Counted from the first letter of the stretch, positions 4,430 through 38,512 are shown. The stretch is DNA of 64,000 nucleotides from an uncultured Desulfobacteraceae bacterium (GCA_964591175.1 CAZQAF010000011.1:3208-67207), one strand, 5' to 3'. The notes: generated by a model not told the origin, from the letters alone. Program-made: numbers and translations.

Positions 4430-4750
4430 CCTTCCAAGAATCGGGTGGTCCTGGAAGTGACCGCGACGGACAATAAATCAAAAGTTATATTTAAAACATC
4501 GAAGATCTACATGCCTCAGTCGACGACATCACTGGACAACACCATGGTGTACGGCCCTGACAAAAAGCTCGGAATCATCAGGGATACGAGCATTCAACCG
4601 TTTGCATCCAAAGAAGAAACATTTGAAATCAAGGTTCCTGAAAGCGTCAAAGATGTGAATGTCGCGGTCAGTCTCAGTTATCAGCTTCGGCCCGGGGATG
4701 TCTATCCGATCCAAAAGATCATAAAAAAGGTATCTGTTGGAACCCCGTAA
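4430..4750 (+). CDS. Probable C-terminal continuation of the cytochrome through UGA 4427-4429 (candidate Sec); otherwise a separate 101-aa ORF from GTG 4445
   Basis: Same reading frame as 3488-4429, with an open frame across the gap (PSKNR). No SD before GTG 4445. Hairpin 4431-4457 lies directly after the TGA. Confidence 0.5.
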   Translation, partial: PSKNRVVLEVTATDNKSKVIFKTSKIYMPQSTTSLDNTMVYGPDKKLGIIRDTSIQPFASKEETFEIKVPESVKDVNVAVSLSYQLRPGDVYPIQKIIKKVSVGTP

Positions 4751-4847
4751 TACTATATTTTTGGAATAAGGATGACGCATTATTTTTTTGTTGACATCGA
4801 TCTGTCGTTTGTGTACTACAATGTACCATAAGCAAGAGGCAATTATC

Positions 4848-4928
4848 ATGAAAACAAAATATTCAAACACATTGAACGGTGACATAATGATGTCCATGAT
4901 GCGTACCCGAGGTGCGCCCATGGATTGA
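4848..4928 (+). CDS. Candidate 26-aa Met-rich leader peptide (MKTKYSNTLNGDIMMSMMRTRGAPMD)
   Basis: ATG 4848 with AAGAGG 8 nt upstream. Six Met codons, including ATG ATG TCC ATG ATG at 4887-4901. The stop lies 23 nt before a terminator. Below the ORF-track size cutoff. Confidence 0.35.
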   Translation: MKTKYSNTLNGDIMMSMMRTRGAPMD

Positions 4929-4950
4929 TCATCTGGAATTTTTGATCGTT

Positions 4951-4993
4951 AAAGCCGTGGGTAATGAAAAAACCTGCGGCTTTTTTATTTTTT
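4951..4993 (+). terminator. Rho-independent terminator / attenuator hairpin
   Basis: Stem GCCGTGGG (4954-4961) pairs with CCTGCGGC (4973-4980), 8 bp including two G.U pairs, 11-nt loop, followed by TTTTTTATTTTTT. Confidence 0.6.
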
Positions 4994-5281
4994 AAGGAAC
5001 AATTATCGAATGTTTTTAACCCGCTTTACATCAAATATCTGCTTCATCGCCATACCTGTCCGGCTCCGCCTATGGATAATGACGGGGCTCCATTGGGAGC
5101 CGCATCATGGCAGTTTACCCTTATTTAAGTAGGAAACAAAAATATTTGCCACCAAGGCACAAAGACACGAAGGATTTTATTTTATTATTCTTTTTTAGTG
5201 TCTTGGTGTCTTTGTGGCGAGAAAAAATTGCCACAAAAAGTATAGAATTTAAAATTAAGAAACGAATAAGGAGATATACTC

Positions 5282-6469
5282 ATGGCCAAAACCATAGAAG
5301 AGATCAATGCCAAAATTCGATCCGGAAAAGTGGTGGTGTTCACCGCCGAAGAGATTATAGAAGTGGTCCGGGAAAAAGGGATCAAACAGGCTGCTCGGGA
5401 GGTGGATGTGGTGACCACCGGAACCTTCAGCCCCATGTGTTCTTCGGGCGCTTTTTTCAACATAAAACAGCAAAAACTAAAGATGAAGTTCGGCGGCGGA
5501 TTCGCCACTTTGAATGGCGTACCGGCGTATGCCGGCCTGGCAGCCGCCGACATCTACGTGGGGGCCACGGCGATTCCCGACGGCGATCCCCGCAACGGCA
5601 ACGGCCGCCCGGGAAAATTCCGGTATGGCGGCGCCCACGTCATCGAGGACCTGGTTGCCGGGAAAAAAGTCCTGCTCAAAAGCGGTGCTTATGGTACCGA
5701 TTGTTATCCGCTGAAAGCCCGGGAACAGACAATCGGACTGGAAGACATGAACGATGCATTCCTGTTCAACCCGAGAAACTGCTATCAGAACTATAATGTC
5801 GCCGTCAACCTTTCCGATAAACCTATATACACTTACATGGGAAAACTCAAACCCAAGCTGGGAAATGCATACTATTGCAGCGCCGGTCAACTGTCACCCT
5901 TGCTAAACGATCCGTATTTCCGTACCATCGGTATCGGCACCCGGGTATTTTTCTGCGGTGCAGAGGGCTATGTTGCCTGGCCCGGCACCCAGCACAATCC
6001 AACAGCGCCGAGGCTGGAAAACGGCACGCCGCAAACCCCGGCCGGAACCATTGCCCTGATCGGAGACATGAGGCAGATGAGTGGGGAATGGCTTCGGGCG
6101 GTTTCCTTTACCGGATATGGCGTAACACTGAGCGTGGCCGTGGGGGTTCCCATTCCCATTATAGACGAAGACATGTTGCGTTCGGTTTCCGTTACCGACG
6201 ACCAGCTCAAAGCGCCGGTGGTCGATTACAGTGAATATTATCCCTTGGGCCAAGGGGAAGCAAAACTCGGGGAGGTCACCTATCAGGCGCTGAAATCCGG
6301 AAGTATCCGCATCAAAGACCAAAAGGTGCCGACCGGATCTTTTTCCAGCTATGCTTTGGCCCGAAAGGTGGCCCATCATCTCAAACAGGTCATTGAAGAC
6401 GGCGATTTTTTGCTGACGCAATTCCAGGCGCCGCTCCCGGGTGCTGCAACAGAAAAGGAGGCCGCATAA
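5282..6469 (+). CDS. Homocysteine biosynthesis protein, DUF39/COG1900 family (aspartate-semialdehyde sulfurtransferase-like)
   Basis: N-terminal region VVVFTAEE...VDVVTTGTFSPMCSSGAFFN is typical of COG1900. AGGAG lies before ATG 5282. Paired with a NIL-ferredoxin gene. Confidence 0.85.
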   Translation: MAKTIEEINAKIRSGKVVVFTAEEIIEVVREKGIKQAAREVDVVTTGTFSPMCSSGAFFNIKQQKLKMKFGGGFATLNGVPAYAGLAAADIYVGATAIPDGDPRNGNGRPGKFRYGGAHVIEDLVAGKKVLLKSGAYGTDCYPLKAREQTIGLEDMNDAFLFNPRNCYQNYNVAVNLSDKPIYTYMGKLKPKLGNAYYCSAGQLSPLLNDPYFRTIGIGTRVFFCGAEGYVAWPGTQHNPTAPRLENGTPQTPAGTIALIGDMRQMSGEWLRAVSFTGYGVTLSVAVGVPIPIIDEDMLRSVSVTDDQLKAPVVDYSEYYPLGQGEAKLGEVTYQALKSGSIRIKDQKVPTGSFSSYALARKVAHHLKQVIEDGDFLLTQFQAPLPGAATEKEAA

Positions 6470-23870: not shown

Positions 23871-24048
23871 CGACGAGAATGCACATTTGAATTATCAAAC
23901 TTAAATTACCCTTGATAAAATAAAGTAGATCGTATAAGCATTTAAATACGGTGATGGAGTTCACCGATTAACCGCACGCACGTGCTGATAACTCCTGCCA
24001 TGCTCAATCCTCCGGCGGGAGTCTTGATAAAGAACTACCGCACAAAAC

Positions 24049-24079
24049 TCCCGCCACACATCAGGGCGGGAATTTTTTT
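24049..24079 (+). terminator. Intrinsic terminator inside a 5' leader (attenuator candidate)
   Basis: TCCCGCC (24049-24055) pairs with GGCGGGA (24065-24071), 9-nt loop, then ATTTTTTT. An upstream GGCGGGAGT (24014-24022) can pair alternatively with ACTCCCGCC (24047-24055). Confidence 0.5.
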
Positions 24080-24218
24080 AGGATCCAACGAACCGGCAAC
24101 TTGCTGTGCCGGCTCATACCGGACATTTTTTGGATTCAACCTGAAAGTTCCCCTTATCATTGTTGTTTTCTTTTATATCCACTTCGACGGTTGCGGGTAT
24201 AAAAAGGTTCCATCGAAC

Positions 24219-25664
24219 ATGCGATTCATAAAGCGCGTAAAAAATAAAGATATCGAAAAACACAACAAAAAAAATGATCTTGGTATCTCTGAACTGGAAC
24301 TTTACAGGCGCCTGGAGGAAAAAGGCTGCCCGGTGTGCAGTGTACTCGAACACCATGACCGGCAATATTTTTCCTGGTTTTCCATTGAAAAGTACCATAT
24401 GCCGGCGTTTCTTGAATCTCTGACGCATGCACTTGGATTCTGTGCGAACCATGGCGCATACCTGGATCGACAGAATCATTGGGCGTCACAAATCACCGCC
24501 GTTCACCGGTATACGGTTTCACGAGTCAATATGCGGATGGCCGCTGGTCTGTCTGAAAGAAAAAATGATTTAAGGCGGATATTTAAAGATCGGACACCCT
24601 GTCCGGTTTGTGCATCCTATGGAGAAACGTCGGAAAGGACCCTTTGGTTTTTTAAAAAGATGATAGAAGAAAAAGAGGGCCTGAATAAATACGGCTATCC
24701 GGGCATACTCTGTTTTCCTCATTTTAAAAGTCTCACCGACAGCGCCTCGCCAAAAGTGTTTGCCAGGCTGCTTTCAAGTCATGAATCGACGATGTTGTCG
24801 ACCACCAAAGAACTGGAATCAATTAGACATCAGGAAATGAAACTTGCGGCGGAATCAGAACAGATCCGGCATGCATTAAACCTGACCGTAGGCCGCGAAC
24901 AGAATCCCGGCAATCCCCTTCTCCTGTCCAGGATTTACAAACTATCTGAAAACCGGGACCCTCTTGCAGATTTTATCTCATCGTTAAAGGAAAATACCGG
25001 CTGCCCGATTTGTCTGAACATTTATCATTCCTTGAGCCAATGGATCTGCTGGCTCGACAAAAATATCATTTCTGCAGACAACTTCGACGCCGTGAGCGAT
25101 GTTTTGCCGACTTGCAATGCACATGTCTGGTCATGCATCCGTCTGGGAAATTCTGCGCTCCAATTTGCCGCCGCATTTGCTGCGTTTCGAGCCGTTCAAG
25201 AAAAAGTCAATAATGCCGCCCGTCACTTGAAACAAGTGAGAAAACCCCGGAAACAAGGGAAAAAGGAAATGCAAAACAATCAAGGCATTATAAAAGTCGA
25301 CCCGAAAAAAACCATCACGGGCCCCATCTATTGCCCCCTATGCAGCCGGATGGATTCGGCCAAAAACCGGGCGCTGAAATTGCTTTTTGCTTTGCTTCAA
25401 GAGCGTCGATACCGTATAGATTTTGAAAATGGCCATGGATTATGCCTCAAACATCTCGCCGACGCACTCGACATGCAGCCTTCAAATGAAATTGCCGGAT
25501 TTTTAATCCGGGTTGAATCCGCCAAGCTGGCGCTTTTAGAATGGGAGCTCGAAGAAGCCATGAGAAAAACGGCCTGGACAGCCCGCCCGGAAATTAAAGG
25601 AAGCGAACAATCAGCCTGGCACCGGGCCCTTGCAAGATTTTCCGGCTTGCCGATATCCGAATAA
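24219..25664 (+). CDS. Uncharacterised protein with four CPxC...C-x2-H modules (DUF6062-like repeats, from memory)
   Basis: Modules CPVC...FCANH, CPVC...CFPHF, CPIC...CNAHVW, CPLC...CLKHL. Start placed at ATG 24219 because the ORF-track start (23982) lies upstream of a terminator. Confidence 0.65.
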   Translation: MRFIKRVKNKDIEKHNKKNDLGISELELYRRLEEKGCPVCSVLEHHDRQYFSWFSIEKYHMPAFLESLTHALGFCANHGAYLDRQNHWASQITAVHRYTVSRVNMRMAAGLSERKNDLRRIFKDRTPCPVCASYGETSERTLWFFKKMIEEKEGLNKYGYPGILCFPHFKSLTDSASPKVFARLLSSHESTMLSTTKELESIRHQEMKLAAESEQIRHALNLTVGREQNPGNPLLLSRIYKLSENRDPLADFISSLKENTGCPICLNIYHSLSQWICWLDKNIISADNFDAVSDVLPTCNAHVWSCIRLGNSALQFAAAFAAFRAVQEKVNNAARHLKQVRKPRKQGKKEMQNNQGIIKVDPKKTITGPIYCPLCSRMDSAKNRALKLLFALLQERRYRIDFENGHGLCLKHLADALDMQPSNEIAGFLIRVESAKLALLEWELEEAMRKTAWTARPEIKGSEQSAWHRALARFSGLPISE

Positions 25665-25681: not shown

Positions 25682-26968
25682 TTGGAAAAACAATCAACGG
25701 CAACAGGGAAATGGCTGAATCGCAATATTTTAGGGTTTGCCCTGACCAGCTTTTTAAGCGATTTTTGTCATGAAATGGCCACAGCGGTGCTGCCTCAATT
25801 CATACAGACGATCGGCGTTTCGGCTGCGGCCTTGGGATTTATCGAAGGGGCTGCGGATGCCATTTCCAGCTTTTCCAAGCTCGGCGTGGGTTATTGGGGA
25901 GATAAAACCGGAAACCGCAAGAACTTGACGGTGATCGGATATGCATTGACCGGATTTTCCAAGGCGGTTTTTGCCTTTGCTTTTGCATGGCCGCTGCTGC
26001 TGGCCGGCAGGATTGTCGGGTGGCTCGGGCGCGGCATAAGGAGCCCCCTCAGGGATGCCATGCTTGCGGACTCGGTAACGGAGAAAAACCGCGCCAAAGC
26101 GTTTGGTTTTCACAGGGCCGGGGATACGGCCGGCGCTGTTGCAGGACCGCTTGTCGCCTTCTTGCTTTTGAGTTTAATCACTTCTCATCCCGAAATCGCT
26201 CAACTTCCGGAACATCTTTTCCCGTTTCTATCAAGCGCGGCAGGTAAAAATTTCAGAGTTATCTTTCTTCTGACACTGGTACCCGGAATACTCTCCGTAG
26301 CCTCCATGGCATTTCTGGTCAAGGAAAAGCGCCGATCACCCAATCACGGGCTCAGGTTTACCGGAGTGATGAGTGCGATGCCGAAGCAGTATCGCATATT
26401 TCTTCTCGCTGTAGGCGTTTTCGGAATGGCCGATTTTGCCCCGACCTTGATGATTCTTCGGGCGACGACGGTCCTGGCCCCTGATATCGGTCTTTTGAAG
26501 GCCATGAAACTCGCCACGCTGCTATATACTTTAAGAAATATTGTTTATGCAGCGGCATCTTATCCCATAGGGGCTTTGAGCCATCGATTTTCAAGAACCC
26601 GTTATCTGGCGGCCGGGTATGCCGTCGCCGTGGTGACATTCGTCGGATTCTTTTTTGCCATATCTTCAGTGCCGTGGTTCGCACTTTGCTTTGCCCTGGC
26701 CGGTGTATTTATTGCCTGGGAGGATACCATGGAAGCGGTGGCGGTCCGAGATTATGTGGATGATTCCATTGCCGGAACAGCCTTTGGTCTTTTGGGCACC
26801 ATCAACGGCATCGGAGATTTTGCATCGAGCATTATCGTCGGTGCATTATGGACTGCCGTAAGCCCGAAATGGGGCTTTGGATATGCCGTTATCGTGGGGT
26901 TGGCCGGCACCATATTAATGGCCAAAACACCTCCGTCAACAACGGTTCAAATTATCAAGGAAAATTGA
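25682..26968 (+). CDS. MFS transporter
   Basis: 428 aa, about 12 hydrophobic segments, MFS loop motif GYWGDKTGNRK. Confidence 0.85.
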   Translation: MEKQSTATGKWLNRNILGFALTSFLSDFCHEMATAVLPQFIQTIGVSAAALGFIEGAADAISSFSKLGVGYWGDKTGNRKNLTVIGYALTGFSKAVFAFAFAWPLLLAGRIVGWLGRGIRSPLRDAMLADSVTEKNRAKAFGFHRAGDTAGAVAGPLVAFLLLSLITSHPEIAQLPEHLFPFLSSAAGKNFRVIFLLTLVPGILSVASMAFLVKEKRRSPNHGLRFTGVMSAMPKQYRIFLLAVGVFGMADFAPTLMILRATTVLAPDIGLLKAMKLATLLYTLRNIVYAAASYPIGALSHRFSRTRYLAAGYAVAVVTFVGFFFAISSVPWFALCFALAGVFIAWEDTMEAVAVRDYVDDSIAGTAFGLLGTINGIGDFASSIIVGALWTAVSPKWGFGYAVIVGLAGTILMAKTPPSTTVQIIKEN

Positions 26969-26992: not shown

Positions 26993-28501
26993 TTATGATG
27001 AGTCCCTGTCAAACCAAATCGCCCGATACAAATCTTCGCCGTAGCTGGTTTCCAATGGCGCACCTTCCACGACTTTAAACGTGCGGGTGCCGTCGGCTCG
27101 CCTTTCGGCCCTGAGGAAAATGGCGTTTTCCATATTTTTTTCGTAAAGCGCATGGGCAAATTCATAAAGGTGCGTCACAAAGAAGACTTTGATACGCTTT
27201 TCCACCAATGCGCGAGTTATCTGCCGCGCAATTTCCGAGCCTTCTCTTTCGTTTGTCGCGGCAAATGATTCATTGAACAACAACAGGGAATTTTCCCTTA
27301 TATTGTCTGCAATAACGCTCATTCTGACAAGTTCTTCATCGAGTTTACCGCTTTCCATAGCAGCGTCCTCTTCCCGTTTATAGTGTGTGAAAAGGCCATC
27401 ACAAATATTGGAACAAAAGGACTCTGCCGGCGCAAACATCCCGCACTGCATCATCAATTGCGCCAAACCGATGCTTCGTAAAAAAGTCGATTTGCCGCCC
27501 TGGTTGGCGCCGGTGATGATGACGAGGTCTTTGTCGTCGGCGTTCACGTCGTTACCGATGATTTTTTGTTTCATGGTCAAGGCCAGGCAGACATCGTATA
27601 AGCCGTGAAAAAAATGTCTGCGTTCATCGAGGGCCGCCGGCCGGGGAAAGGATATCGGCTCGTCCATTTGATCAAGCTGTTCATATAAATTCAAACAACC
27701 GATATAAAAAGCCAGTTCGACCTGCAGCATTTTAAAAAAGTTGTCGATGTGATCAGCGGACTGGCCCAGTGCGTTGGCTGCCAGATTGATCCCTCTCGTC
27801 TTTAATTCCGACAGCGTCCTGGCGCCGGCTTCATCTCGAGGATGGATAGAAAACGTATAGACCGGTGGTTTTTTAGCCAGGACCCGCTTTATCCAACGCT
27901 GTTTTTTTCCCATGGATTTGCGAAGCATATAACCGGTGCCTTCATTGCCTTCTCCCAGTTCAGCACTGATCAAGACGCCCTCGCTAAATTTCAGCTCCCT
28001 TAGATGATCTTGAATATCTGCGAGGTATTCATCTTCCAGTTCTTTGCAAATCATTTCAAAAAACCTCGCAAATCCTTCCGACTCAAATTTATCTGCGTTT
28101 TCATCGGCGATATGCCTAAGTTTTATCAGCAGACCGACAAACATCTGCATCAGCTCTGTCGCATTGGCCAGCACCGCGCCGGGGGAAGAACTGAAAATAC
28201 TATACCAATGTTTTTTTTTGTTTTTCATCGATTCTATGGGAATCTGGTAGATGTCCCTGACTGTGGCTGAATTTTTCAGGCAATCTTTGAGAATCCTCTG
28301 GCGATACCGTATGGTTTCAAGATCGGTATTCATCCCTCCGACAACCGCTTTCTTTGCCACCTCAAATAAAAATGCATCACCAAGGGCCATGGCATTGAAA
28401 AGGGTTTCTAATTCCAGGTCTTGCATCAGTGCTTCTTCGTTGGCCGGCAATTTCTGCTGAAGGTTAAAATCACGGTCTTTATACATCAGAAAAGTTTTCA
28501 T
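26993..28501 (-). CDS. Short MutS-family ABC ATPase (domain III/V only), paralogue B
   Basis: 502 aa. Walker A ITGANQGGKSTFLRSIG, Walker-B-like LLLFNESFAATNEREG, C-terminal THLYEF. ATGA overlap with the upstream paralogue. Confidence 0.8.
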   Translation of the reverse strand: MKTFLMYKDRDFNLQQKLPANEEALMQDLELETLFNAMALGDAFLFEVAKKAVVGGMNTDLETIRYRQRILKDCLKNSATVRDIYQIPIESMKNKKKHWYSIFSSSPGAVLANATELMQMFVGLLIKLRHIADENADKFESEGFARFFEMICKELEDEYLADIQDHLRELKFSEGVLISAELGEGNEGTGYMLRKSMGKKQRWIKRVLAKKPPVYTFSIHPRDEAGARTLSELKTRGINLAANALGQSADHIDNFFKMLQVELAFYIGCLNLYEQLDQMDEPISFPRPAALDERRHFFHGLYDVCLALTMKQKIIGNDVNADDKDLVIITGANQGGKSTFLRSIGLAQLMMQCGMFAPAESFCSNICDGLFTHYKREEDAAMESGKLDEELVRMSVIADNIRENSLLLFNESFAATNEREGSEIARQITRALVEKRIKVFFVTHLYEFAHALYEKNMENAIFLRAERRADGTRTFKVVEGAPLETSYGEDLYRAIWFDRDSS

Positions 28502-30078
28502 GATATCAGTCGCTCCTTTAACCGGCCGTAAGTGACGCCATGCTTTTCGGCAATAGCGATGGCATATGCAAGACCGTCAGCCGGCCGTCTCACAATTTTA
28601 TAGGTTCTCAATGCCGGGTTTTCGGGAACAACGGTACTGACCATGCTCACGGTTTTTTCACTTAGGGATGCCAATTCATCGACAAAGGTTACAAAGACGC
28701 ACAGCAAATCCAGCTGCACGATTTCCTCCATGACCTTTTTCCCTAAAAAAACCGCGTCATTTAAAGTTGTGGAAGTGAAAATTTCATTCATGACGATAAT
28801 GCTGTTTGATGTGGCCCGGTTCAGAATATCGTAAATTCTGACCAGGTCATCCTGGAGCTTGCCTCTGAGGTTGTTGATGCTTTCTTCCTTTTCAAAATGC
28901 GTCAGCAGCTTGTCGAACATAAAGAGTCGCGCCTGTCTGCCAGGGACCGGACAGCCCAGGCCAGCCATATAATGCAACTGTCCGAAGGTGCGTGCGAAAG
29001 TGGTTTTACCGCCCTGGTTTGGTCCGGATATTACAATGATGCGTTCTTTGTCTTTCAGAAAAAAATCATTGCAGACAACGGGCGCTTTCTCTGAAATGAG
29101 CTTATCGGCCAGTGCCAGATCAAAGCCCTCATAATTATGTATATCCTTGCTTGTAACGGCGATTTGGGGGTAACAAAATTTCAATCCTGTTTGTTTGATT
29201 TTTGCGATATACTCCAGATAAGCGATGTAAAATTGTATTTCCCGGTCAAAAACGCCTATGGTTTGGTCCAGACAACTGCGGTTGTTCGCGCAATAATTAT
29301 CAAGGTTTAAAAAGATCTCGGGATATAACTTGGCGACCAAATCGAGTATACCCGCTTCGACATGGCTCATGCCGGAATTCATTGGAAGTTGCGCCCTGTA
29401 ATCTTTCACCGCTCCCTGTTTGAATCTTTCGAAGGTTTTTTCAACGTCTGCGCTGTAATCAATTTCAGATTCATATTTGCGGACCTTGATGCGGTTGCCC
29501 TTTATGATCAAACAATATTTTACAGTGGCCAAATCGGTTTTGAGTTTTTTTGTTTCCGTCATAAGTGATGTAAAGCGGCGGGACGCGGCATAGTTCGTCA
29601 TATATTCGCGAAAAGCCAAAAGACCGTACGATTTTAAATCTGCTAGATCTAAATCGTGCAGCAGGCAAGTCACTGCTTCGCAATAAATCTTTAGGGCCTC
29701 TAAAAACCATCCTTCTTGATGGTATTTGTAGTAGAGCGTATCCGCTAAGGAGAGATATCGACGCATGTTACGCATTTTTTCCGCGAATGATTTTATATGC
29801 TCAAAGAGAACCTCATTTTCAAGATCCTGCATTATTTCTTGGCGGTACCGGATCGCGCCGGCATCCTTTAAGGAAGTATAAAAGAAAGGTTTTAAATGAT
29901 ATTCCTCCTTGCCGGTGGTAATGGCGTCTATAATCTGATCGAGATTTAAATCAGCAAAAAAGACGGGCGCTTCAGGTGTTTCTTTTTTTATGTCGCTTTG
30001 GGCTTTTTCAAATAGAATGCTGTAAAAATCCATGGGATCAATATCCTTGTTGTGGCGAAGTAAAATGCCAAGACCCAT
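28498..30078 (-). CDS. Short MutS-family ABC ATPase (domain III/V only), paralogue A
   Basis: 526 aa. Walker A ISGPNQGGKTTFARTFG, Walker-B-like IIVMNEIFTSTT, THFDEL-like VTFVDEL. The real start may be the internal MDFYSILF (about 30033). Confidence 0.8.
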   Translation of the reverse strand: MGLGILLRHNKDIDPMDFYSILFEKAQSDIKKETPEAPVFFADLNLDQIIDAITTGKEEYHLKPFFYTSLKDAGAIRYRQEIMQDLENEVLFEHIKSFAEKMRNMRRYLSLADTLYYKYHQEGWFLEALKIYCEAVTCLLHDLDLADLKSYGLLAFREYMTNYAASRRFTSLMTETKKLKTDLATVKYCLIIKGNRIKVRKYESEIDYSADVEKTFERFKQGAVKDYRAQLPMNSGMSHVEAGILDLVAKLYPEIFLNLDNYCANNRSCLDQTIGVFDREIQFYIAYLEYIAKIKQTGLKFCYPQIAVTSKDIHNYEGFDLALADKLISEKAPVVCNDFFLKDKERIIVISGPNQGGKTTFARTFGQLHYMAGLGCPVPGRQARLFMFDKLLTHFEKEESINNLRGKLQDDLVRIYDILNRATSNSIIVMNEIFTSTTLNDAVFLGKKVMEEIVQLDLLCVFVTFVDELASLSEKTVSMVSTVVPENPALRTYKIVRRPADGLAYAIAIAEKHGVTYGRLKERLIS

Positions 30079-30130
30079 CCCGCATCACGGCGCAGCCGCA
30101 CGGCATCAGCCTGGCCGCTGCGAAAGGTCA

Positions 30131-30769
30131 TTATTTAATTTCCCGCTTCACAAACTCCTTCATTCCCAGAGGATAACCTCCGGTTACCTCGGCCAGCATG
30201 CGGATGTGTTTTTCAGACCAGTTAAGGCTGTTTTTTCGGGAAACATATCGAAGGAAATCAACGGCATTTTTTATGCCGAGATTTCCGAGTTTGATTAAGT
30301 GAGAAGGCATCAGGCACGCCCGTAGCTGAAACAGATCACGTTCCGGTAAAAAACCCTCTGTGATTGCAATGAAAAGGAGTTTTTTAGAAAAAGCGACCCG
30401 CTGAATAAATGCCAGTCTCTGATGGGAGAGTTCAGAAATATTGTCCAGAACGATGACAGGTTGCCTGTTGTCTTTTAATGTCAGATCGGCAATCAGAGAT
30501 CTTGCCGTTTTATATTTTATATATTTGCGACGATGTTCGGGCGGCCTTTTAGGGGATACTTTCCATAAGATTTCATTACATACCTTTGACGGCGGTTTTG
30601 AGAAATCCGTAAAGACAAACTGCCATCTTTGCTTGGTTATGTCAGATAGATGTTTGGCCAGTTCGGTTTTGCCGATGCCATATTTTCCCGTAATGACGAT
30701 ATGTTTTTTTTTCTTTAACGCATTGATGATTTCCAATATTTCTTTTTTTCGCCCGAAAAAATACATCAT
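30131..30769 (-). CDS. Small AAA/Arch-ATPase-like P-loop protein
   Basis: 212 aa. FFGRKKEILEI then Walker A ITGKYGIGKTELAK; Walker B VIVLDNISE. Confidence 0.7.
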   Translation of the reverse strand: MMYFFGRKKEILEIINALKKKKHIVITGKYGIGKTELAKHLSDITKQRWQFVFTDFSKPPSKVCNEILWKVSPKRPPEHRRKYIKYKTARSLIADLTLKDNRQPVIVLDNISELSHQRLAFIQRVAFSKKLLFIAITEGFLPERDLFQLRACLMPSHLIKLGNLGIKNAVDFLRYVSRKNSLNWSEKHIRMLAEVTGGYPLGMKEFVKREIK

Positions 30770-31030
30770 TTAAAAAAATCTTGATAAGGTGTTGATGTTT
30801 ATAGAAGCTATCTCAAAATTAGGATTTTCGGTCGAGATCAAGGCGAGGCCGAGAAGCAACCCGCAGGCATACTCAAGTATGTCGAGGACTTGATACGAGG
30901 GCTCAACGCCGATATCGGACGAAAAGACTTTTTTGAGATGGCTTCTAAAATCATTTATGCAAAAAGGTATGAACCCTATTATTTTTTTCAAGGCCGGGGG
31001 AAAATTTACCAGTCGTAAAGGATTTCCCAA
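30770..31030 (-). CDS. Hypothetical 86-aa ORF; its stop abuts the ATPase start
   Basis: TTG start without SD, overlapping the antiporter 3' end by 25 nt. Its TAA is immediately followed by the ATG of the ATPase, which itself has no SD (a coupling argument only). Confidence 0.3.
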   Translation of the reverse strand: MGNPLRLVNFPPALKKIIGFIPFCINDFRSHLKKVFSSDIGVEPSYQVLDILEYACGLLLGLALISTENPNFEIASININTLSRFF

Positions 31031-32466
31031 TAATTTTCAAAAGGCGGATCATTCTGACTGTACCGGTATGACATGGTTTTCCCGGTACCGGGACCCGAAG
31101 TGCTGTCTTCGCGCCAGTATTTGACAAAAATGCCGGGAATACGATGTGCGTTCGTCCCATCCATCCATACTTCCTTTTCTTCGATAATCTTCCAGACCGT
31201 CCCGAATTGCTTGCTCCGAACCCGTTCGCCCACACGCGGCAGCCCGTGTTTTGCCCGGAGGTCTTTGAATTTATAAGGGGACTGTTCGCCGTAATCCAAA
31301 ATCTTTTCTCCTGAAATGATAATTCCGATGGCCCCGAGCGGTGCGGTCAAAAGAATGGAGAGGACGGCAACGGCTAAGATCAGATCTCCTGAAGCCACAC
31401 CGGCGGCTAAAGGAACCGCACCGATGGCCGCCTGGACGGTGGCCTTGGGGATGTAGGATATCACGCAGAAAATCCTCTCTTTCTGGTTGAGCGGCGTCCC
31501 GATCAGACAAATGTAGGTTCCGACGCTACGGAACAAAAGCCCCACCAAAATGACGAGGGTCCCGGCAAGCCCGGCATGCCAGGCCACGTTGACATTGACC
31601 TGGGCACCGACCAGAACGAAGAGAAGCAGCTCGGCAAACACCCAGACCTTTTTAAGTTTTTGGGAAATCAGGTGAGCGACGGGTTCGGATTTTTCCAAGA
31701 TAATAAACCCGATGGCCATGACCCCTAAAAGACTGGCAATGGGCACCCATTTTTCACATTCCTTCTCCAGCCAGGTCAAGATGATGGCGACGCCTAAAAC
31801 GATCAGGGTCCGTTTGGGCGGCCGCCAGTCGTATTTGGTGAACAGACGGTATAAAAAATACCCGGGAATGACGCCCACCAAAATCCCCAGCGTAATTGAA
31901 ACCGGTATTTCTCCCAATTTGGCCCAAATATTGACCGTACCGCCGCCATACATGCCTAAAAATATCGAAAAGAGAACGATGACAAAAACATCGTCAATGG
32001 ATGACGCCGCCAGCAGCAGCGTGGGAATGCCCTTTTTGGCGCCCCGGCCCCGATCTATGAAATCAATCATCAACGGCACCACCACCGCCGGCGAAACAGC
32101 GCCTAAGATGGCACCAAGTATGGCGGCTTCCACGTAGCTGATATGCAGCCATCTCGGGGCGACCAGAATGACACCCGCGATTTCAAAAATTGCGGGAATA
32201 CAGCTCATTAAAAGGGCGGCTCGTCCCACGCGGTGCAGGGTGTCTTTATGCAGCTCAAATCCGGCGCGGAGCAAAATGACAATCAAGGCAATTTTTCGAA
32301 AATCAGCGGAAACCCTCATCATATCCGGAGCCATGAGGTTGAAGACATAGGGTCCTGCGAGGATTCCCACGATGAGCATACCCACCAAACCGGGTAATTT
32401 TACCTTCCGAAATACATAATCCGCCAGTAATCCCAAAACGATAATCAAAGAAAGACTTGCCGCCAT
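31006..32466 (-). CDS. Cation:proton antiporter (Na+/H+ exchanger family) with a roughly 90-aa soluble C-terminal extension
   Basis: 486 aa. N-terminus LIIVLGLLADYVFRKVKLPGLVGMLIVGILAGP is typical of the CPA family, with about 12 TM segments. AGGAGG lies before the ATG. Confidence 0.85.
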   Translation of the reverse strand: MAASLSLIIVLGLLADYVFRKVKLPGLVGMLIVGILAGPYVFNLMAPDMMRVSADFRKIALIVILLRAGFELHKDTLHRVGRAALLMSCIPAIFEIAGVILVAPRWLHISYVEAAILGAILGAVSPAVVVPLMIDFIDRGRGAKKGIPTLLLAASSIDDVFVIVLFSIFLGMYGGGTVNIWAKLGEIPVSITLGILVGVIPGYFLYRLFTKYDWRPPKRTLIVLGVAIILTWLEKECEKWVPIASLLGVMAIGFIILEKSEPVAHLISQKLKKVWVFAELLLFVLVGAQVNVNVAWHAGLAGTLVILVGLLFRSVGTYICLIGTPLNQKERIFCVISYIPKATVQAAIGAVPLAAGVASGDLILAVAVLSILLTAPLGAIGIIISGEKILDYGEQSPYKFKDLRAKHGLPRVGERVRSKQFGTVWKIIEEKEVWMDGTNAHRIPGIFVKYWREDSTSGPGTGKTMSYRYSQNDPPFENYWEILYDW

Positions 32467-32805: not shown

Positions 32806-34563
32806 TTACATGGCCGAAACATCTTTTTGAAAAGAATAAAGCTTATTGCGAATTTCTTCAACATTCGATAACCGGTCTGAAAGCTTTGACAGGGTCTGGG
32901 AAACCTCTTTTTCACTCTGATCTTTGAGCGCCATCGCCCGGTTCAAAGCTTCCCTGATGGTGGAAACGGTCAGGCCGATTTTTTCATTCAGTGCTTTTTT
33001 AAAGTTTCTGCTGGTGTCTTCGACCCGCCGAATCAGATCGTATCTTACCCGGCCGCAATGCCTTTCAAATCGACCGGAAATAGTATCTTTCATCCGCTTT
33101 AATATAATCCCCTTGGCCATGAATTTCGGCAGGGCAAAACGGATCGACAGCCCGATAAGCTCTATCGCGCCCGGATCGTCTTTTAACAAAAAATAGAACT
33201 CACCTTTTTTGGATAGTTTTTCAACAGTGGTAAACGGTTTGAGTTCCACCCGGAACAGATCAGACGTCATCTTCACGATGTTTTCAATGATATCATTGGT
33301 GCGTTTTGCAATATCCAGGTAGATTTGCTCAAGGATCCCGGCGATCTTTTCCGCTTCTTTTTGCCTGACCCTGTTAAATGTGACCATGATTTCGTTAAAA
33401 ACAAAATCTTCCATTTCCTTTTCAAGTTCATGACTGCTGATCTGTCGGGCGGTTGTTTCGGCAAATTTTTCTTCCATTTTTTTTAAAAGAACCGGCAGAT
33501 CTTTTCGGACAAGACCCGCCAGATCATCATCCAGCTTTTGCTGGAGCTTTCTCATATGTCCTTCTAAAATGAAATTTTGGCGATCCCGGTCCTTTTGAGC
33601 GGTATCGGCATATTCTTCAAAGGTTGCGATTTTCGCTTTTAACTCCTCAACCGATAATCGGGCTGCTTCCTGCTCTATCTTGTAAGCCATGGTTTCATCG
33701 GCGGTATATTTTAAAAGAGATCCGATAACCGAACGAAGAAAGGTTTTTCCCTTTTCATGGTGTAAAAAATCTTTGAGATCTTTTTCAAAAGCCAACATAT
33801 TAGACCGGTTTAATTTGTCCGTATCGCCCTTTAGTTTTCCTAACAGCGCGAATTTCGCCGAAACCGGATAGAGATTGACGGATTGCCCAAGATCTTCTCG
33901 TATAAGATTGGTGGTGAATTCCATGGATTCGCTTAGATCCGATGCTTCCACCAAGTCGGTTTTGTTTAATACAAAAATAAATTTGTCGGCATGCTCCCGG
34001 ACTTCCTTTAAAAATCGATGCTCGGCTTCTCCCAGCGGCGGGTCCGGCGTAACGATAAAGACGCCGGCATCGACGTAGGGCAGATACGCATAGGCCACAT
34101 CCGTATTATGTTTAAACACCGAACCCACTCCGGGGGTATCGATGATCCGCACCCCATCCTTCAAATAATCCGAGGGATAAAAAATCTCCACCTCTTTGAC
34201 ATGCAGTTTGTTTTTAGGGTTTTGTTTTTCAGTCACAAATTTCGGAATATCCGGAAGGTGAATCTCCTCTTCTTTCTCATCCAAATAACGCACAATCGCC
34301 CTGCTTGTTTGTCCGTAACGCAAAATGGTGACAATGGAAGTTAAGGGAACAATGGATGTCGGAAGGATTTCGGCGCCGATCAACGCATTGATAAACGTAG
34401 ACTTTCCGCGTTTGAACTGCCCCATTACCACCAGGTTGAATTGCTCCAACGCCAGTTTTTCGGTTATCTCGCCAAGTCTTTTATCCCTATTGCTATTCAT
34501 CTTTGAGAGATCGTCGACAACACCTAATATCCGATCCTTCATTACAGCAAATCGAGTTTCCAT
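32806..34563 (-). CDS. Bacterial dynamin-like GTPase
   Basis: G1 GQFKRGKST, G3 DTPG, G4 NKTD, and a long coiled-coil/stalk C-terminal half. AGGAGG lies before the ATG. Confidence 0.85.
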   Translation of the reverse strand: METRFAVMKDRILGVVDDLSKMNSNRDKRLGEITEKLALEQFNLVVMGQFKRGKSTFINALIGAEILPTSIVPLTSIVTILRYGQTSRAIVRYLDEKEEEIHLPDIPKFVTEKQNPKNKLHVKEVEIFYPSDYLKDGVRIIDTPGVGSVFKHNTDVAYAYLPYVDAGVFIVTPDPPLGEAEHRFLKEVREHADKFIFVLNKTDLVEASDLSESMEFTTNLIREDLGQSVNLYPVSAKFALLGKLKGDTDKLNRSNMLAFEKDLKDFLHHEKGKTFLRSVIGSLLKYTADETMAYKIEQEAARLSVEELKAKIATFEEYADTAQKDRDRQNFILEGHMRKLQQKLDDDLAGLVRKDLPVLLKKMEEKFAETTARQISSHELEKEMEDFVFNEIMVTFNRVRQKEAEKIAGILEQIYLDIAKRTNDIIENIVKMTSDLFRVELKPFTTVEKLSKKGEFYFLLKDDPGAIELIGLSIRFALPKFMAKGIILKRMKDTISGRFERHCGRVRYDLIRRVEDTSRNFKKALNEKIGLTVSTIREALNRAMALKDQSEKEVSQTLSKLSDRLSNVEEIRNKLYSFQKDVSAM

Positions 34564-34617
34564 GACGACGCACCTCCTGTGTAGAGAATATATCGGATAT
34601 GCTGGCCTAATAGATAC

Positions 34618-34786
34618 AAAAAAAAACCCTGCACGGTTCGAATCCGGGCAGGGTTATACTCCTTTGTATCTGCAGCGAAGGGCAAAGCAGATATTGGTGA
34701 ATAACTCCTACCCGTTATAAGTAGAAGTCATCATTTCTATCCCCTTTACGCAAGATACGAAAAGTTCAGGCAGACTTCATTACCTT
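34618..34786 (-). promoter_or_regulatory. Conserved structured 5' leader (copy 2) ending in a strong intrinsic terminator
   Basis: RNA sense: AAGGUAAUGAAGUCUGCCUGAA, then GACUUCUAC/GUAGGAGUU, then CCCUGCCCGG-AUUCGAA-CCGUGCAGGG-U9. Confidence 0.5.
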
Positions 34787-34803
34787 TCGCAATATTCGTT
34801 TAG

Positions 34804-34832
34804 TTCATAATCTATGGCGGTTTTTTTGTCAA
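34804..34832 (-). promoter_or_regulatory. Sigma-70-type promoter candidate TTGACA-17-TATGAA for the dynamin leader
   Basis: -35 at 34832-34827 and -10 at 34809-34804 on the minus strand, about 20 nt upstream of the conserved leader motif. Confidence 0.4.
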
Positions 34833-34875
34833 TCTCATTTTTTTTAAAAATTTAGTGATATTCCGGCAAGTGTCG

Positions 34876-36255
34876 CTAAATATTTAGTATGATCTTGGCC
34901 GTTATAAAGAAAATAAGCAAACCGGTGATGTCGACAACGGTCGTCAACGCCGGGCTTGCGATTACGGCAGGATCGAGTTTCAATCTTGCGGCGAACAAAG
35001 GAAGTAACGCACCGATGACGGTTGCGGTAATCACTTGTAATGTCAGGGCGACCGAAACAGCGATGCCGATCGTGCCGAGTGAAAAACCCGCCGGCACGGA
35101 AGATCCTGCGCCGAAAAATAGAACGCGTCCATATGCAATAGCCCCGAGCAATAGGCCGAGAAGCAGTCCGATTTGAGCCTCTTTCAAGAGGATTCGCACG
35201 ATGTCTTTATGGGTAATTTCTTCAAGGGCCAGTGCCCGAACGACCAAGGTCGCCGATTGACTTCCGGTGTTTCCTCCGGTATCCGCCAGCATGGGCATAA
35301 ACGTGACCAATATGGCAAATTGCAGCAGCAGCCCTTCGAATTTCTGGACGATAGCACCGGATATAAATCCGACAAAAGCAAGAACTACGATCCACAAGAC
35401 CCTGTTTTTGAAATGTTTTATGACCGGTGTCTTCATATAGGCGGCTGCTTCGTGGCGACCGGAGATCGCCATGAACTTTTCCATATCTTCTGTTTGTTCC
35501 TGGGTGATAATATCGATGGCATCATCGTGCGTGATAATGCCGACAAGCGCTTCATTGCCGTTAATAATCGGCAAGGCGATAAGATCGTATTTCTGAATTT
35601 TACGGGCTGCGTCTTCCTGGTCATCTTCAACGCGGGCGCAAATCACATCCCGGTGCATGATCTCCCCGATCCGGGACTCTTTCCGGGCAATAATCAAATC
35701 TTTTAATGATATAAAACCGATCAATTTACGGTGCCTATCCACCACATAAGCATAATAGATGGTTTCTCGGTCCGGCGCGATTTCCCTGAGTCGATCGATG
35801 GCTTGCGATGCCGTCAATTCCGGAGATAGGGTCGCATAATCCGAGGTCATCACCGCACCGGCCGTGCCTTCCTTGTAAGCGGACAAACGGCGTATGTCTT
35901 CCCGCTCGGCTTGAGCCATGGCGGGCAAAACTTCTTCACGTCTGTCTTCGGGCAGAAGTTTGAACACGTCCGCGCGATCATCCGGAGGCATATCGGCAAG
36001 CAGCCGGACGATGTCTCCCCGGCCTAATGCGCCGATGATATCCACTTGAAGCTCATCATTCAGATGACTGAAGATATCAGAGCGGGTCTGAAAGCCGGCA
36101 TGCCGGAGTACATCCCATGCTTCACCGGTGGTCAGTGAGGAGATCATCTCAGCCACCACCACAGGGTGGCTCGATTCGCAGAAAGTTTTTAGGAATTTGG
36201 TGTTTCCGGACGTAATCAAATTACGGAGGTCGGAAACAACGAGTGGGGTTTTCAT
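34876..36255 (-). CDS. mgtE: Magnesium transporter MgtE
   Basis: 459 aa with an MgtE N-domain, a CBS pair, and a C-terminal TM domain carrying the DTGGNTGSQSAT motif. Confidence 0.92.
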   Translation of the reverse strand: MKTPLVVSDLRNLITSGNTKFLKTFCESSHPVVVAEMISSLTTGEAWDVLRHAGFQTRSDIFSHLNDELQVDIIGALGRGDIVRLLADMPPDDRADVFKLLPEDRREEVLPAMAQAEREDIRRLSAYKEGTAGAVMTSDYATLSPELTASQAIDRLREIAPDRETIYYAYVVDRHRKLIGFISLKDLIIARKESRIGEIMHRDVICARVEDDQEDAARKIQKYDLIALPIINGNEALVGIITHDDAIDIITQEQTEDMEKFMAISGRHEAAAYMKTPVIKHFKNRVLWIVVLAFVGFISGAIVQKFEGLLLQFAILVTFMPMLADTGGNTGSQSATLVVRALALEEITHKDIVRILLKEAQIGLLLGLLLGAIAYGRVLFFGAGSSVPAGFSLGTIGIAVSVALTLQVITATVIGALLPLFAARLKLDPAVIASPALTTVVDITGLLIFFITAKIILNI

Positions 36256-36573
36256 AGCTCACCTCTGTTTCAACCGCGTTTGGAGATCATTCGCGGCCAG
36301 AGGCGAACCGGTGGGCTATGCGCTGCTGGCGAACCGACCGATCACATCAAGAGCCGCAGGGTACCACCGCCAAGGTCCGGGGTCATCAGGATCTTGTTGT
36401 GTCGTCTCTTGTGTTTCTTTGCGACAGCTACAACTGCCGTCCGAGTCGTTCATAATTATTACTCCTTTTTTAACAATGGTCTTCTAAAACCAAGCGTACT
36501 GTATAAGAAAATATTTTCATTGTCAATATCGATAAATTCGTAAAAACTCGAATCTATCAAGTATTTGGTATTT

Positions 36574-36672
36574 AGTGTTCAGTGTTCAGCAGTATCTGGG
36601 TTCGGGGTTCAAGCATTCAACCTTTATACCCTTGGGTACCTTCTGAACGCCGAACTCCGAACACTGAACACT
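36574..36672. repeat. 99-nt imperfect inverted repeat built from GTGTTCA / GGGTTC-type short repeats
   Basis: Perfect 14-nt arms AGTGTTCAGTGTTC (36574-36587) and GAACACTGAACACT (36659-36672), plus inner imperfect pairing 36598-36613 with 36643-36658. Confidence 0.5.
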
Positions 36673-36865
36673 GATATGAAAACTGAATCGTGCTTGACCA
36701 TATCGCTGTGCTTTGATACGTAATTAGCGGTTGCATATTCATAAGACTTCGTCTAAAAATTACATTTGAAGTTTAAATCAGGATAACAAGTTAGTCCTTT
36801 GAAACAAATCAACCGTAAAAGGCTAACGTTTTACGAAAAAGGTAACTTTTTTAAAGGAGTGTGTC

Positions 36866-37294
36866 GTGAAGTCAAAATGGTCTATGTTAACGGCAATGGT
36901 TTTTTTGCTTACCATAATTTTTTTACCCCTGACCTATGTTACGGCTCAGGACGCGTCCGTTTGCCAGCCGGACAAAGCGCTTTGCGCCCGTATGATCCGA
37001 TTCGGACAGGAAGCGTACGCCAGAGGCAAATACCTGGATGCAAAAGAATATTTCAGAAAAGCGGTCAAAGCCGATCCCACATCCCTAAAAGCCTGGCGGT
37101 TTTATGATCAGACTGTCATTTTCGGTTTGGCTGAAAAGGTGGAAAAGAATGCCAATTTGGTTTTGCCGGATGTCTCAACCAGACAGGAAACACAAACCGG
37201 GTTGTCTCCGGCGCCGCCTCCGGCGCCACCGAAACCGGCTGCAAGCCAACAGAAAAACAGTGGATTTAAGATTCTAGATGACGAGGGATGTTAG
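36866..37294 (+). CDS. Secreted TPR-motif protein with a Pro-rich linker and an acidic Gly-Cys C-terminus
   Basis: GTG start with AAAGGAG upstream. Signal peptide LTAMVFLLTIIFLPLTYVTAQ. One TPR-like unit (YARGKYLDAKEYFRKAVKADP). C-terminus ...KILDDEGC. Confidence 0.6.
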   Translation: MKSKWSMLTAMVFLLTIIFLPLTYVTAQDASVCQPDKALCARMIRFGQEAYARGKYLDAKEYFRKAVKADPTSLKAWRFYDQTVIFGLAEKVEKNANLVLPDVSTRQETQTGLSPAPPPAPPKPAASQQKNSGFKILDDEGC

Positions 37295-37318
37295 TTAATT
37301 TGTGAGGTTTCAATTACT

Positions 37319-38512
37319 ATGAACGATAATAATCAACCAAGCGTTTTTAACGAAATTCTGATCAGCGGGTATCAAAAAGTCTTTGACGAAAACTGGCCCA
37401 TGTGGCTCGGCGGCATTTTGATCGGTCTCATGAGTGTCATTACTTTTGCCTGGGCCAGGCCCTGGGGGGTTGCCGGAGGGCTGAGAAACTGGGGCGACTG
37501 GTTTTTCAGTTCCGTGGGGATTTATGCGCAGCAACCACAATCGCCGCTGATTTCAACAAACTCCATTCTTACCCTGGGATTACTGTGGGGCGCCTTTGGG
37601 TCCGCCCTTTTATCCAGGCAGTTTGCCATTCGCAAAGCACCTCCTTTAGAACTCGGGAAAGGGATTGCCGGCGGGACATTGATGGGTATCGGTTCGGCAA
37701 TGGCCGGCGGCTGCAATGTAGGCGGTTTCTTTTCAGCCGTCAGCGCCATGTCCGCCAGCGGCATTGCCATGATGATCGGACTGCTCATCGGCGCATATTT
37801 GGGACTGAGGTATCTGTACTGGGAGCTCGAGCATCTTCCCTCGGGGTCCATCAAAGTCGCGGAAACCAAAGAAAAAGGCATTGATTGGTTGAAAATAGAG
37901 CCCTATTTAGGAGCGCTCGTACTCATTGCCGCCATCGTTTGTACATGGATATACAACAAGAATGCATATACGCGTGTCGGCGGCCTATTGCTGTGCGGCA
38001 TCGCGTTTGGCATCATTATTCAAAGAACCCGGTTTTGTTTTGTCAGGGGATTTCGAGAACCTTTCATGACCGGCGAAAGCCAAATGCCAAGAGCGATCGC
38101 CGTCGCCGTTATTATCAGTGCTCTCGGATTTGCGGCCCTCAAATATTCGGGTGTACGCGGAGAAAATGTTTACGTTCCTCAGGCATTTTGGTTCGGAGGC
38201 CTGGTGGGGGGCGTTATCTTTGGAATCGGTATGGTGATAGCAGGCGGATGTGGGAGCGGTTCCGTATGGCGGGCCGGCGAAGGTCAAATCAAGCTGATAC
38301 TGGCCGTGGTCTTTTTTGCATTGTCCACTTCGCTGTTCAAAGCATGGATCAGAAGCTCGGCAGGCCTCACCTCGCTCATGGGCTTCAGAGTCTTTATGCC
38401 GAACTTCATCAGCTATAAATGGAGCCTGATTTTGATAATTGTCATTATGCTGGCATATTATCTCATCACCACCTGGAATGAAGAGACGGAAAAGTTTGTT
38501 GTGGAGATATAA
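37319..38512 (+). CDS. YeeE/YedE-family membrane protein (thiosulfate or selenium uptake type)
   Basis: 397 aa. Two conserved Cys loops GGCNVGG and GGCGSGSVWRAGEG, multiple TM helices. Confidence 0.9.
   Translation: MNDNNQPSVFNEILISGYQKVFDENWPMWLGGILIGLMSVITFAWARPWGVAGGLRNWGDWFFSSVGIYAQQPQSPLISTNSILTLGLLWGAFGSALLSRQFAIRKAPPLELGKGIAGGTLMGIGSAMAGGCNVGGFFSAVSAMSASGIAMMIGLLIGAYLGLRYLYWELEHLPSGSIKVAETKEKGIDWLKIEPYLGALVLIAAIVCTWIYNKNAYTRVGGLLLCGIAFGIIIQRTRFCFVRGFREPFMTGESQMPRAIAVAVIISALGFAALKYSGVRGENVYVPQAFWFGGLVGGVIFGIGMVIAGGCGSGSVWRAGEGQIKLILAVVFFALSTSLFKAWIRSSAGLTSLMGFRVFMPNFISYKWSLILIIVIMLAYYLITTWNEETEKFVVEI

Follow-up and report, generated by a model that had tools for sequence, protein, structure and literature searches.

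A fluoride riboswitch very probably lies in the leader of a bacterial dynamin-like GTPase gene from an uncultured Desulfobacteraceae bacterium

The region studied here belongs to a 64-kb window (the whole stretch of DNA that was analyzed) and comprises, on the minus strand, a gene encoding a dynamin-like GTPase together with its 5′ UTR, in which promoter, aptamer, tail hairpin, terminator, ribosome-binding site, and ATG follow one another on the coding strand. Direct reading of the minus strand across 34450-34950 recovered every leader element that a preliminary description of this DNA had listed, each in its place. The features of the locus, with sequences in RNA sense, are as follows:

34876-36255: mgtE, which ends upstream of the dynamin promoter
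34804-34832, minus strand: candidate sigma-70 promoter, with TTGACA at 34832-34827, a 17-nt spacer, and TATGAA at 34809-34804
34793-34715, minus strand: aptamer of the dynamin leader
34786-34765, minus strand: AAGGUAAUGAAGUCUGCCUGAA, read directly
34729-34703, minus strand: hairpin GACUUCUAC-UUAUAACGG-GUAGGAGUU, formed by the aptamer 3′ tail and an anti-tail and devoid of a U-run
34701-34714, minus strand: anti-tail CGGGUAGGAGUUAU, the 5′ strand of a proposed antiterminator
34693-34687 with 34673-34667, minus strand: spacer hairpin UAUCUGC...GCAGAUA, enclosed by the proposed antiterminator
34645-34657, minus strand: AUAACCCUGCCCG, the 3′ strand of the proposed antiterminator, overlapping the 5′ arm of the terminator
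34653-34618, minus strand: intrinsic terminator CCCUGCCCGG-AUUCGAA-CCGUGCAGGG followed by nine U, from direct reading and RNAfold
34578-34573, minus strand: ribosome-binding site AGGAGG, conserved in orthologous leaders
32806-34563, minus strand: bacterial dynamin-like GTPase gene of the BDLP/IniA type (585 aa), with its ATG at 34563

The product of the dynamin gene matched the Pfam family Dynamin_N with 101.3 bits against a threshold of 27 and harbors the G1 (GQFKRGKST, residues 48-56), G3 (DTPG, 142-145), and G4 (NKTD, 200-203) motifs, within which G48, K54, S55, D142-G145, N200, K201, and D203 were invariant across 14 homologs. When a profile of 14 homologs was compared with the PDB, it retrieved BDLP (2j68, E = 3.9e-36), IniA (6j72, E = 2.8e-20), and also Campylobacter DLP1. 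The AlphaFold model (pLDDT 77, pTM 0.60) found its best Foldseek hits in 2j69_A (E = 5e-19) and 6j72 (E = 2.5e-18), aligned at full length over ~600 columns with TM-scores of 0.44-0.45. The Dynamin_N domain and the G1-G4 motifs are thus features held in common with BDLP of Nostoc punctiforme (2j68/2j69), IniA of mycobacteria (6j72), and Campylobacter DLP1/2 (5owv); the full-length structural match adds the long helical neck and trunk bundles of BDLP and IniA, and the length of 585 aa is near that of IniA, whereas identity to the solved structures amounts to only 16-18%. No transmembrane helix was predicted for this protein. A conserved aromatic and hydrophobic stretch at about 455-490, in which F456, Y457, F458, and P464 are invariant, constitutes a candidate membrane-binding tip and overlaps residues 446-482, the sole long low-confidence region of the model. 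By its predicted fold and its motifs, the product of 32806-34563 is a true bacterial dynamin-like protein.

Regarding the transcription signals of the leader, TTGACA with its flanking bases and a −10 region of the form TATnnn were invariant in all five orthologous leaders compared. A scanner for consensus promoters and terminators reported neither the promoter nor the terminator of the dynamin leader. The promoter escaped it because its rules demand T at position 6 of the −10 element, which is A here, and a single C·U mismatch in the stem may be what hid the terminator. Both elements were accepted on direct reading, RNAfold, and conservation instead of the scanner output. The leader as a whole is near-identical in four close relatives (L001-L004), the flanks of which have diverged. 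The preliminary description had also assigned mgtE a different leader; the region upstream of that gene (36200-37350) produced no Rfam family at E <= 1, and this fits the assignment only in a limited way.

Comparison of the entire 64-kb window with 4227 Rfam families revealed three matches above the curated threshold, all of them to RF01734, the fluoride riboswitch or crcB motif (gathering score 34 bits). The copy in the dynamin leader spans model positions 1-64 of 64 with 35.3 bits (E = 4.7e-6), only 1.3 bits above the gathering score, and we attribute this low value to a 17-nt insertion in P3, a helix that is consequently longer by ~17 nt than in other RF01734 members. The insertion lengthens the helix and does not disrupt it (UUUC-G-UAUC ... 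GAUA-GAAA). P1 is formed by GGUA (34784-34781) and UGCC (34772-34769), the pseudoknot by GAAGUC (34778-34773) and GACUUC (34729-34724), and P3 by UUUC (34762-34759) and GAAA (34737-34734), extended by UAUC/GAUA. The architecture is accordingly that of the RF01734 class: P1 and P3 are present, the P1 loop forms a pseudoknot with the 3′ tail, and the AUG...GU and UGAUGAC blocks are conserved. All 14 invariant aptamer positions of our alignment A2 are found in this copy. The placement in the 5′ UTR is likewise that of the class.

A covariance model built from 20 hits above the Rfam threshold (R1) was subsequently searched against the window and 80 related loci, where it gave 129 hits, exactly three of them within the window, and scored the dynamin-leader copy at 61.7 bits. 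Across 129 related hits, P1 and the pseudoknot were 99.3% paired, with six covarying pairs and 156 cells changed on both sides as against 41.9 in shuffles, and the pairing collapsed once the partners were slid. Covariation in the pseudoknot is exemplified by GAAGU/ACUUC, GAGGU/ACCUC, and GGAGU/ACUCC. The count was limited to P1 and the pseudoknot because the alignment register of P3 is unreliable, MAFFT having set its 5′ strand in two registers and R1 placing P3 two columns off in some sequences. The three copies in the window are genuine fluoride aptamers and not a repeat. The leader motif of the preliminary description is RF01734, and the copy ahead of the dynamin gene is almost certainly a riboswitch; we infer that it binds fluoride.

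The pairing of this riboswitch class with the dynamin gene was examined in 80 genome loci (L001-L080) bearing a dynamin homolog of 38-94% identity, mostly from metagenome-assembled genomes of Desulfobacterota (Desulfobacterales, Syntrophobacterales, Desulfobaccales, and Desulfurellales). A fluoride aptamer lies on the same strand within 600 nt upstream of the dynamin homolog in 70 of these 80 loci, and in five more (L005, L022, L042, L048, and L056) it heads a run of same-strand genes that ends in the dynamin gene. In the remaining five (L014, L055, L065, L068, and L073; 39-58% identity), no fluoride aptamer was detected in the vicinity. The pair also exists in a cultured organism with a complete genome, Thermosulfuriphilus ammonigenes (CP048877.1; locus L081, 3887-5761; 62% identity), in which an aptamer (3887-3958) with a canonical terminator stands 43 nt before the start codon of the dynamin gene (4001-5761); there, prenyltransferase-like and LemA genes come after the dynamin gene. 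Literature searches across ~8.3 million full texts found no link between dynamins and the fluoride riboswitch or crcB, and the mentions of fluoride in dynamin papers appear, from titles and abstracts, to be unrelated to the riboswitch. The 2012 gene tabulation fell outside the coverage of these searches, and the novelty of the dynamin link is therefore provisional. Within these bounds, the near-universal association of one bacterial dynamin clade with a fluoride riboswitch appears to be undocumented.

The other two aptamers of the window head further transcription units, laid out as follows:

32690-32621, minus strand: aptamer of the antiporter-operon leader (RF01734, 41.2 bits, E = 5.5e-8)
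32587-32558 and 32542-32513, minus strand: tandem terminators T1 and T2 of the antiporter leader
31006-32466, minus strand: CPA cation/proton antiporter, the first gene of the operon 26993-32466
30131-30769, minus strand: small AAA/STAND-like NTPase of the same operon
28498-30078 and 26993-28501, minus strand: two proteins of the same operon in which MutS domain V is the sole recognizable domain
23941-24004, plus strand: third fluoride riboswitch aptamer (RF01734, 54.5 bits, the best score in the window)
24048-24079, plus strand: terminator of the third riboswitch
24024-25664, plus strand: Cys-rich DUF6062 protein with several CPxC motifs, behind the third riboswitch
25682-26968, plus strand: MFS transporter, after the DUF6062 gene

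The dynamin and antiporter leaders had been described as sharing a motif, and this is borne out, as both contain the two conserved blocks and both copies score above the RF01734 gathering score and well above chance. The earlier proposal of one signal for both the dynamin gene and the antiporter/AAA/MutS-like operon also gains support: the same sensor class precedes both, so one signal should switch both units. Neighborhoods of the dynamin homologs likewise have this aptamer class ahead of CPA antiporters and MutS-like genes. The nature of the signal must be revised. Salt, alkaline, osmotic, membrane-damage, or phage stress had been put forward as test conditions, and since the motif is RF01734 the expected inducer is fluoride. 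With one sensor class standing ahead of the dynamin gene, the antiporter operon, and the DUF6062/MFS pair, the three units form one putative fluoride regulon, which includes four P-loop NTPases (the dynamin, the AAA/STAND-like protein, and the two MutS-V proteins). The MutS-like proteins were considered as membrane proteins and this was rejected: neither has an N-terminal or multi-span transmembrane segment, and the only marginal hydrophobic stretch of the pair (453-471) is located within the ATPase domain of the first.

Several additional observations concern these units. The trio of riboswitch, DUF6062 gene, and MFS gene is also found in L003 and L004. The C-terminal ~85 aa of the antiporter (31006-31305) also exist as a stand-alone conserved protein of 94 aa (LPRVGxTVRSKxYGTLWRV...NTFExNWE), with copies at L075:2036-2320, L070:5117-5401, L011:4949-5233, L037:3356-3640, L076:1821-2105, L077:2943-3227, L029:643-951, and L047:3734-4024; in many genomes, it sits directly behind fluoride riboswitches or immediately after the dynamin gene. 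Neither the antiporter C-terminal domain nor its 94-aa homologs matched a family in Pfam or NCBIfam, which, together with the riboswitch placement, points to an unnamed component of the fluoride regulon. An imperfect palindrome of ~150 nt (30795-30954), which folds into a long hairpin (z = −4.5), occupies the spacer that separates the antiporter and AAA genes. It is missing from the orthologous spacer of L001, has a 96% identical copy elsewhere in L003 (567-715), and reaches a word depth of 40-240x in salt-marsh metatranscriptome contigs, with many different flanks, as against 1-12 for the neighboring genes. With no Rfam match at E <= 1, this palindrome resembles either a small MITE-like mobile hairpin or an RNA of high abundance.

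Directly behind the other aptamers of the loci, we found genes for Na+/H+ exchangers (nine), enolase (three), MFS transporters (three), DUF6062 proteins (two), HEAT-repeat proteins (two), and one NADH-dehydrogenase-type subunit, while MutS-like genes follow aptamers in L031 and L041. Na+/H+ antiporters are the second commonest gene class with fluoride riboswitches, and enolase and formate hydrogen lyase are among the other reported classes (PMC11139923); the NADH-dehydrogenase-type subunit possibly reflects the latter. Genes of the mutS type and ion transporters were tied to the crcB motif as early as 2010 (PMC2864571). The functional link that the preliminary description regarded as undescribed is consequently new in its dynamin part, for which no report was found, and already on record for mutS and ion transporters (PMC2864571) and for Na+/H+ antiporters (PMC11139923). 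Judged from gene order, the context of the dynamin-leader aptamer is typical of a fluoride regulon, and the association with Na+/H+ antiporters and mutS-like genes is a trait of the RF01734 class. No CrcB/Fluc or CLC-F exporter and no small four-helix membrane ORF was detected in the 64-kb window, the other large membrane proteins of which are AcrB, NrfD, and Sulf_transp, and none of the 45 ORFs directly behind aptamers in the window and L001-L080 matched the CRCB or CLC families. The arrangement recalls that of Enterobacter cloacae FRM, in which a fluoride-induced ppaC-uspA-eno-gpmA-crcB resistance operon lies behind a fluoride riboswitch (PMC5533749), insofar as one riboswitch class governs several functionally different genes. 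The E. cloacae operon combines an exporter with fluoride-inhibited enzymes, whereas the window, exporter-free over its 64 kb, offers an antiporter, an MFS transporter, the four P-loop NTPases, and the Cys-rich DUF6062 protein.

Environmental sequence data provided a further view of these leaders. Between 92 and 100% of the sampled words of the window sequence were found in salt-marsh metagenomes. One salt-marsh metatranscriptome contig covers 34775-34148, running through the aptamer and the terminator into the dynamin coding region, and further contigs cross both terminators of the antiporter leader into the antiporter gene, so that read-through RNA is present in situ. Such contigs may derive from DNA, their depth is low and flat, and they are silent on induction. 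Seawater contains ~70 micromolar fluoride, near the reported affinity of fluoride aptamers.

These observations bear on three other readings of the leader motif. That the aptamer has decayed and no longer senses its ligand might be read from a score (35.3 bits) close to the threshold of 34 and from its unusually long P3, but the 14 invariant A2 positions are in place, P1, pseudoknot, and P3 all pair, the leader has stayed almost identical in L001-L004 despite the diverged flanks, its position is kept in 70 of 80 genomes, and a contig of read-through RNA exists; decay is accordingly quite improbable. Still less probable is a previously unknown motif governing a new regulon for salt, alkaline, osmotic, membrane, or phage stress. 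Antiporter and dynamin genes would suit ion or membrane stress, yet a curated and experimentally established riboswitch class is matched at three sites, the pseudoknot that defines the class covaries, and the enolase and Na+/H+ exchangers behind neighboring aptamers are genes typical of a fluoride regulon (PMC11139923). A generic dispersed repeat that fell by chance into two leaders was named in the preliminary description as one outcome that would undo its proposal, and it has the sequence similarity of the two copies, and nothing else, to recommend it. With just three copies across the 64 kb, all of them in coding-strand 5′ leaders, and with the similarity limited to the aptamer consensus while the variable P3 loops differ, this account is scarcely credible. 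Taken together, we regard it as highly probable that 34793-34618 (minus strand) is the leader of a dynamin-like GTPase gene containing a fluoride riboswitch.

How the aptamer is coupled to gene expression is most readily seen in the orthologous leaders. In 50 of 70, the aptamer 3′ tail doubles as the 5′ arm of a canonical terminator, a hairpin with U7-9 behind it, and about seven more have the same design, marginally short of our criteria. This design is that of the canonical fluoride ON switch, in which the ligand-held tail prevents termination. In five leaders of Desulfurellales/Hippea (L057, L060, L062, L063, and L064), the tail pairs instead with a GGAGG ribosome-binding site, and L059 and L061 show the same arrangement as judged by eye; the dynamin gene starts just 15-25 nt past the aptamer in this group, and the arrangement reads as a translational version of the fluoride switch. 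The direct terminator and the platform that pairs with the ribosome-binding site imply the same ON logic. Studied examples of the fluoride riboswitch are those of Bacillus cereus crcB and Pseudomonas syringae eriC-F and that of Thermotoga petrophila, known from a crystal structure.

The leader in the window departs from the canonical design. Its tail hairpin (34729-34703) is the homolog of the canonical fluoride-switch terminator and, according to RNAfold, is the minimum-energy structure of the ligand-free nascent RNA, but in the window and L001-L004 it is followed by AUUCACC and no U-run, and a separate strong terminator stands 50 nt downstream, apparently governed through an intervening antiterminator. 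Transcripts of rising length were folded stepwise, once freely and once with a locked aptamer, in which 34793-34721 could form no other pairs, as folding at full length lets the A-rich stretch pair with the U-run, which is irrelevant during transcription. Unconstrained, the RNA formed the tail/anti-tail hairpin first and the terminator afterward. With the aptamer locked, the anti-tail CGGGUAGG-A-GUUAU (34714-34701) paired with AUAAC-CCUGCCCG (34657-34645), giving an antiterminator of 13 bp with one bulge around the small UAUCUGC hairpin at every length up to the U-run. The locked fold of the window, L001, and L003 lost all nine terminator pairs, in the window even with the U-run included, whereas the terminator was still preferred in L002, which has one antiterminator mismatch, and in L004, which has lost the extension GUUAU:AUAAC. 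Thermodynamic support for a relay is therefore found in three of the five close sequences, and kinetic arguments are needed for the others. Across the five sequences, the terminator 5′ arm shows no change whereas the 3′ arm varies at several positions, as befits a strand with two pairing partners. One compensatory change was seen in the spacer hairpin in L002/L003 (CUGC/GCAG to CCGC/GCGG); no two-sided covariation was observed in the antiterminator among the close orthologs, which differ too little.

The other two leaders of the window have the same three-helix layout. In the antiporter leader, the partner of the anti-tail is GAUUUCUGCCC, located at the T1 base. CCGGGCGGGG, in the T1 3′ arm, is complementary to CCUGCCCGG, in the T2 5′ arm, so that the riboswitch decision could pass along both terminators. 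In the third leader, GGCGGGAGU has two alternative partners, the tail and ACUCCCGCC of the terminator.

Based on these pairings, we propose a relay for the dynamin leader. At low fluoride, the aptamer 3′ tail GACUUCUAC would pair with the adjacent downstream anti-tail GUAGGAGUU, leaving the terminator 34653-34618 free to form, and transcription would stop ahead of the dynamin gene. Binding of fluoride as a Mg2+/F− cluster would keep the tail in the aptamer pseudoknot, and the released anti-tail (34714-34701) would pair with the terminator 5′ arm, AUAACCCUGCCCG (34657-34645), so that no terminator could form and RNA polymerase would continue into the dynamin gene. The leader would accordingly act as an ON switch by competition for the 3′ tail, as in the RF01734 class, with the tail hairpin, stripped of its U-run, serving as an anti-antiterminator that relays to a separate terminator.

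This succession of anti-antiterminator, antiterminator, and terminator is our best model of the platform, unproven and somewhat favored over other possibilities on the predicted folds. It would be wrong, with the fluoride riboswitch itself real, if the tail hairpin acted by pausing, Rho access, or RNA stability and the downstream terminator were a leaky, unregulated attenuator or otherwise controlled. The locked folds of L002 and L004, which retain the terminator, the extension GUUAU:AUAAC missing in L004, and an antiterminator that lacks two-sided covariation speak for such a case. However, if the nine-U terminator were unregulated, the conserved sensor ahead of it would have no output, the invariance of the terminator 5′ arm beside a variable 3′ arm favors its having two partners, three-helix complementarity is common to all three leaders of the window, and the terminator is under direct control in orthologs, all of which make the alternative rather unlikely. 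If the relay holds, it would be a small addition to the known ways in which a fluoride riboswitch couples to termination.

The dynamin-like GTPase sets this leader apart from the RF01734 members in the literature with respect to the regulated gene and, conversely, the inducer would set the protein apart from other bacterial dynamins. IniA is induced by cell-wall drugs and DynA of B. subtilis is active in membrane stress and phage defence, whereas fluoride, by way of an RNA switch, would be the inducer here. What bacterial dynamin-like proteins do physiologically is poorly defined. We tentatively suggest, with a confidence a little short of even, that this dynamin clade is a dedicated fluoride-stress effector, the induction of which has been kept across Desulfobacterota orders and their relatives by means of three platforms (the direct terminator, sequestration of the ribosome-binding site, and the proposed relay), and which may work alongside the riboswitch-controlled MutS-V pair and AAA/STAND-like NTPase. 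One possible role is the repair or remodeling of membranes harmed by HF influx. Another possibility is that these P-loop NTPases are resistant, or are over-made, when Mg-fluoride complexes poison nucleotide hydrolases, a parallel to enolase and pyrophosphatase, which are known to be over-produced.

In terms of annotation, the three leaders of the window and well over 100 in related genomes can be labeled as fluoride riboswitches. The analysis also flags uncharacterized members of the fluoride regulon, namely the MutS-V pair, the AAA/STAND-like NTPase, the DUF6062 protein, and the unnamed 94-aa domain. For the dynamin family, a clade that stands almost always behind a fluoride sensor offers a hypothesis that is cheaply testable, with a defined chemical inducer and a cultured carrier in T. 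ammonigenes; if it is true, bacterial dynamins would gain their first defined small-ion inducer in fluoride.
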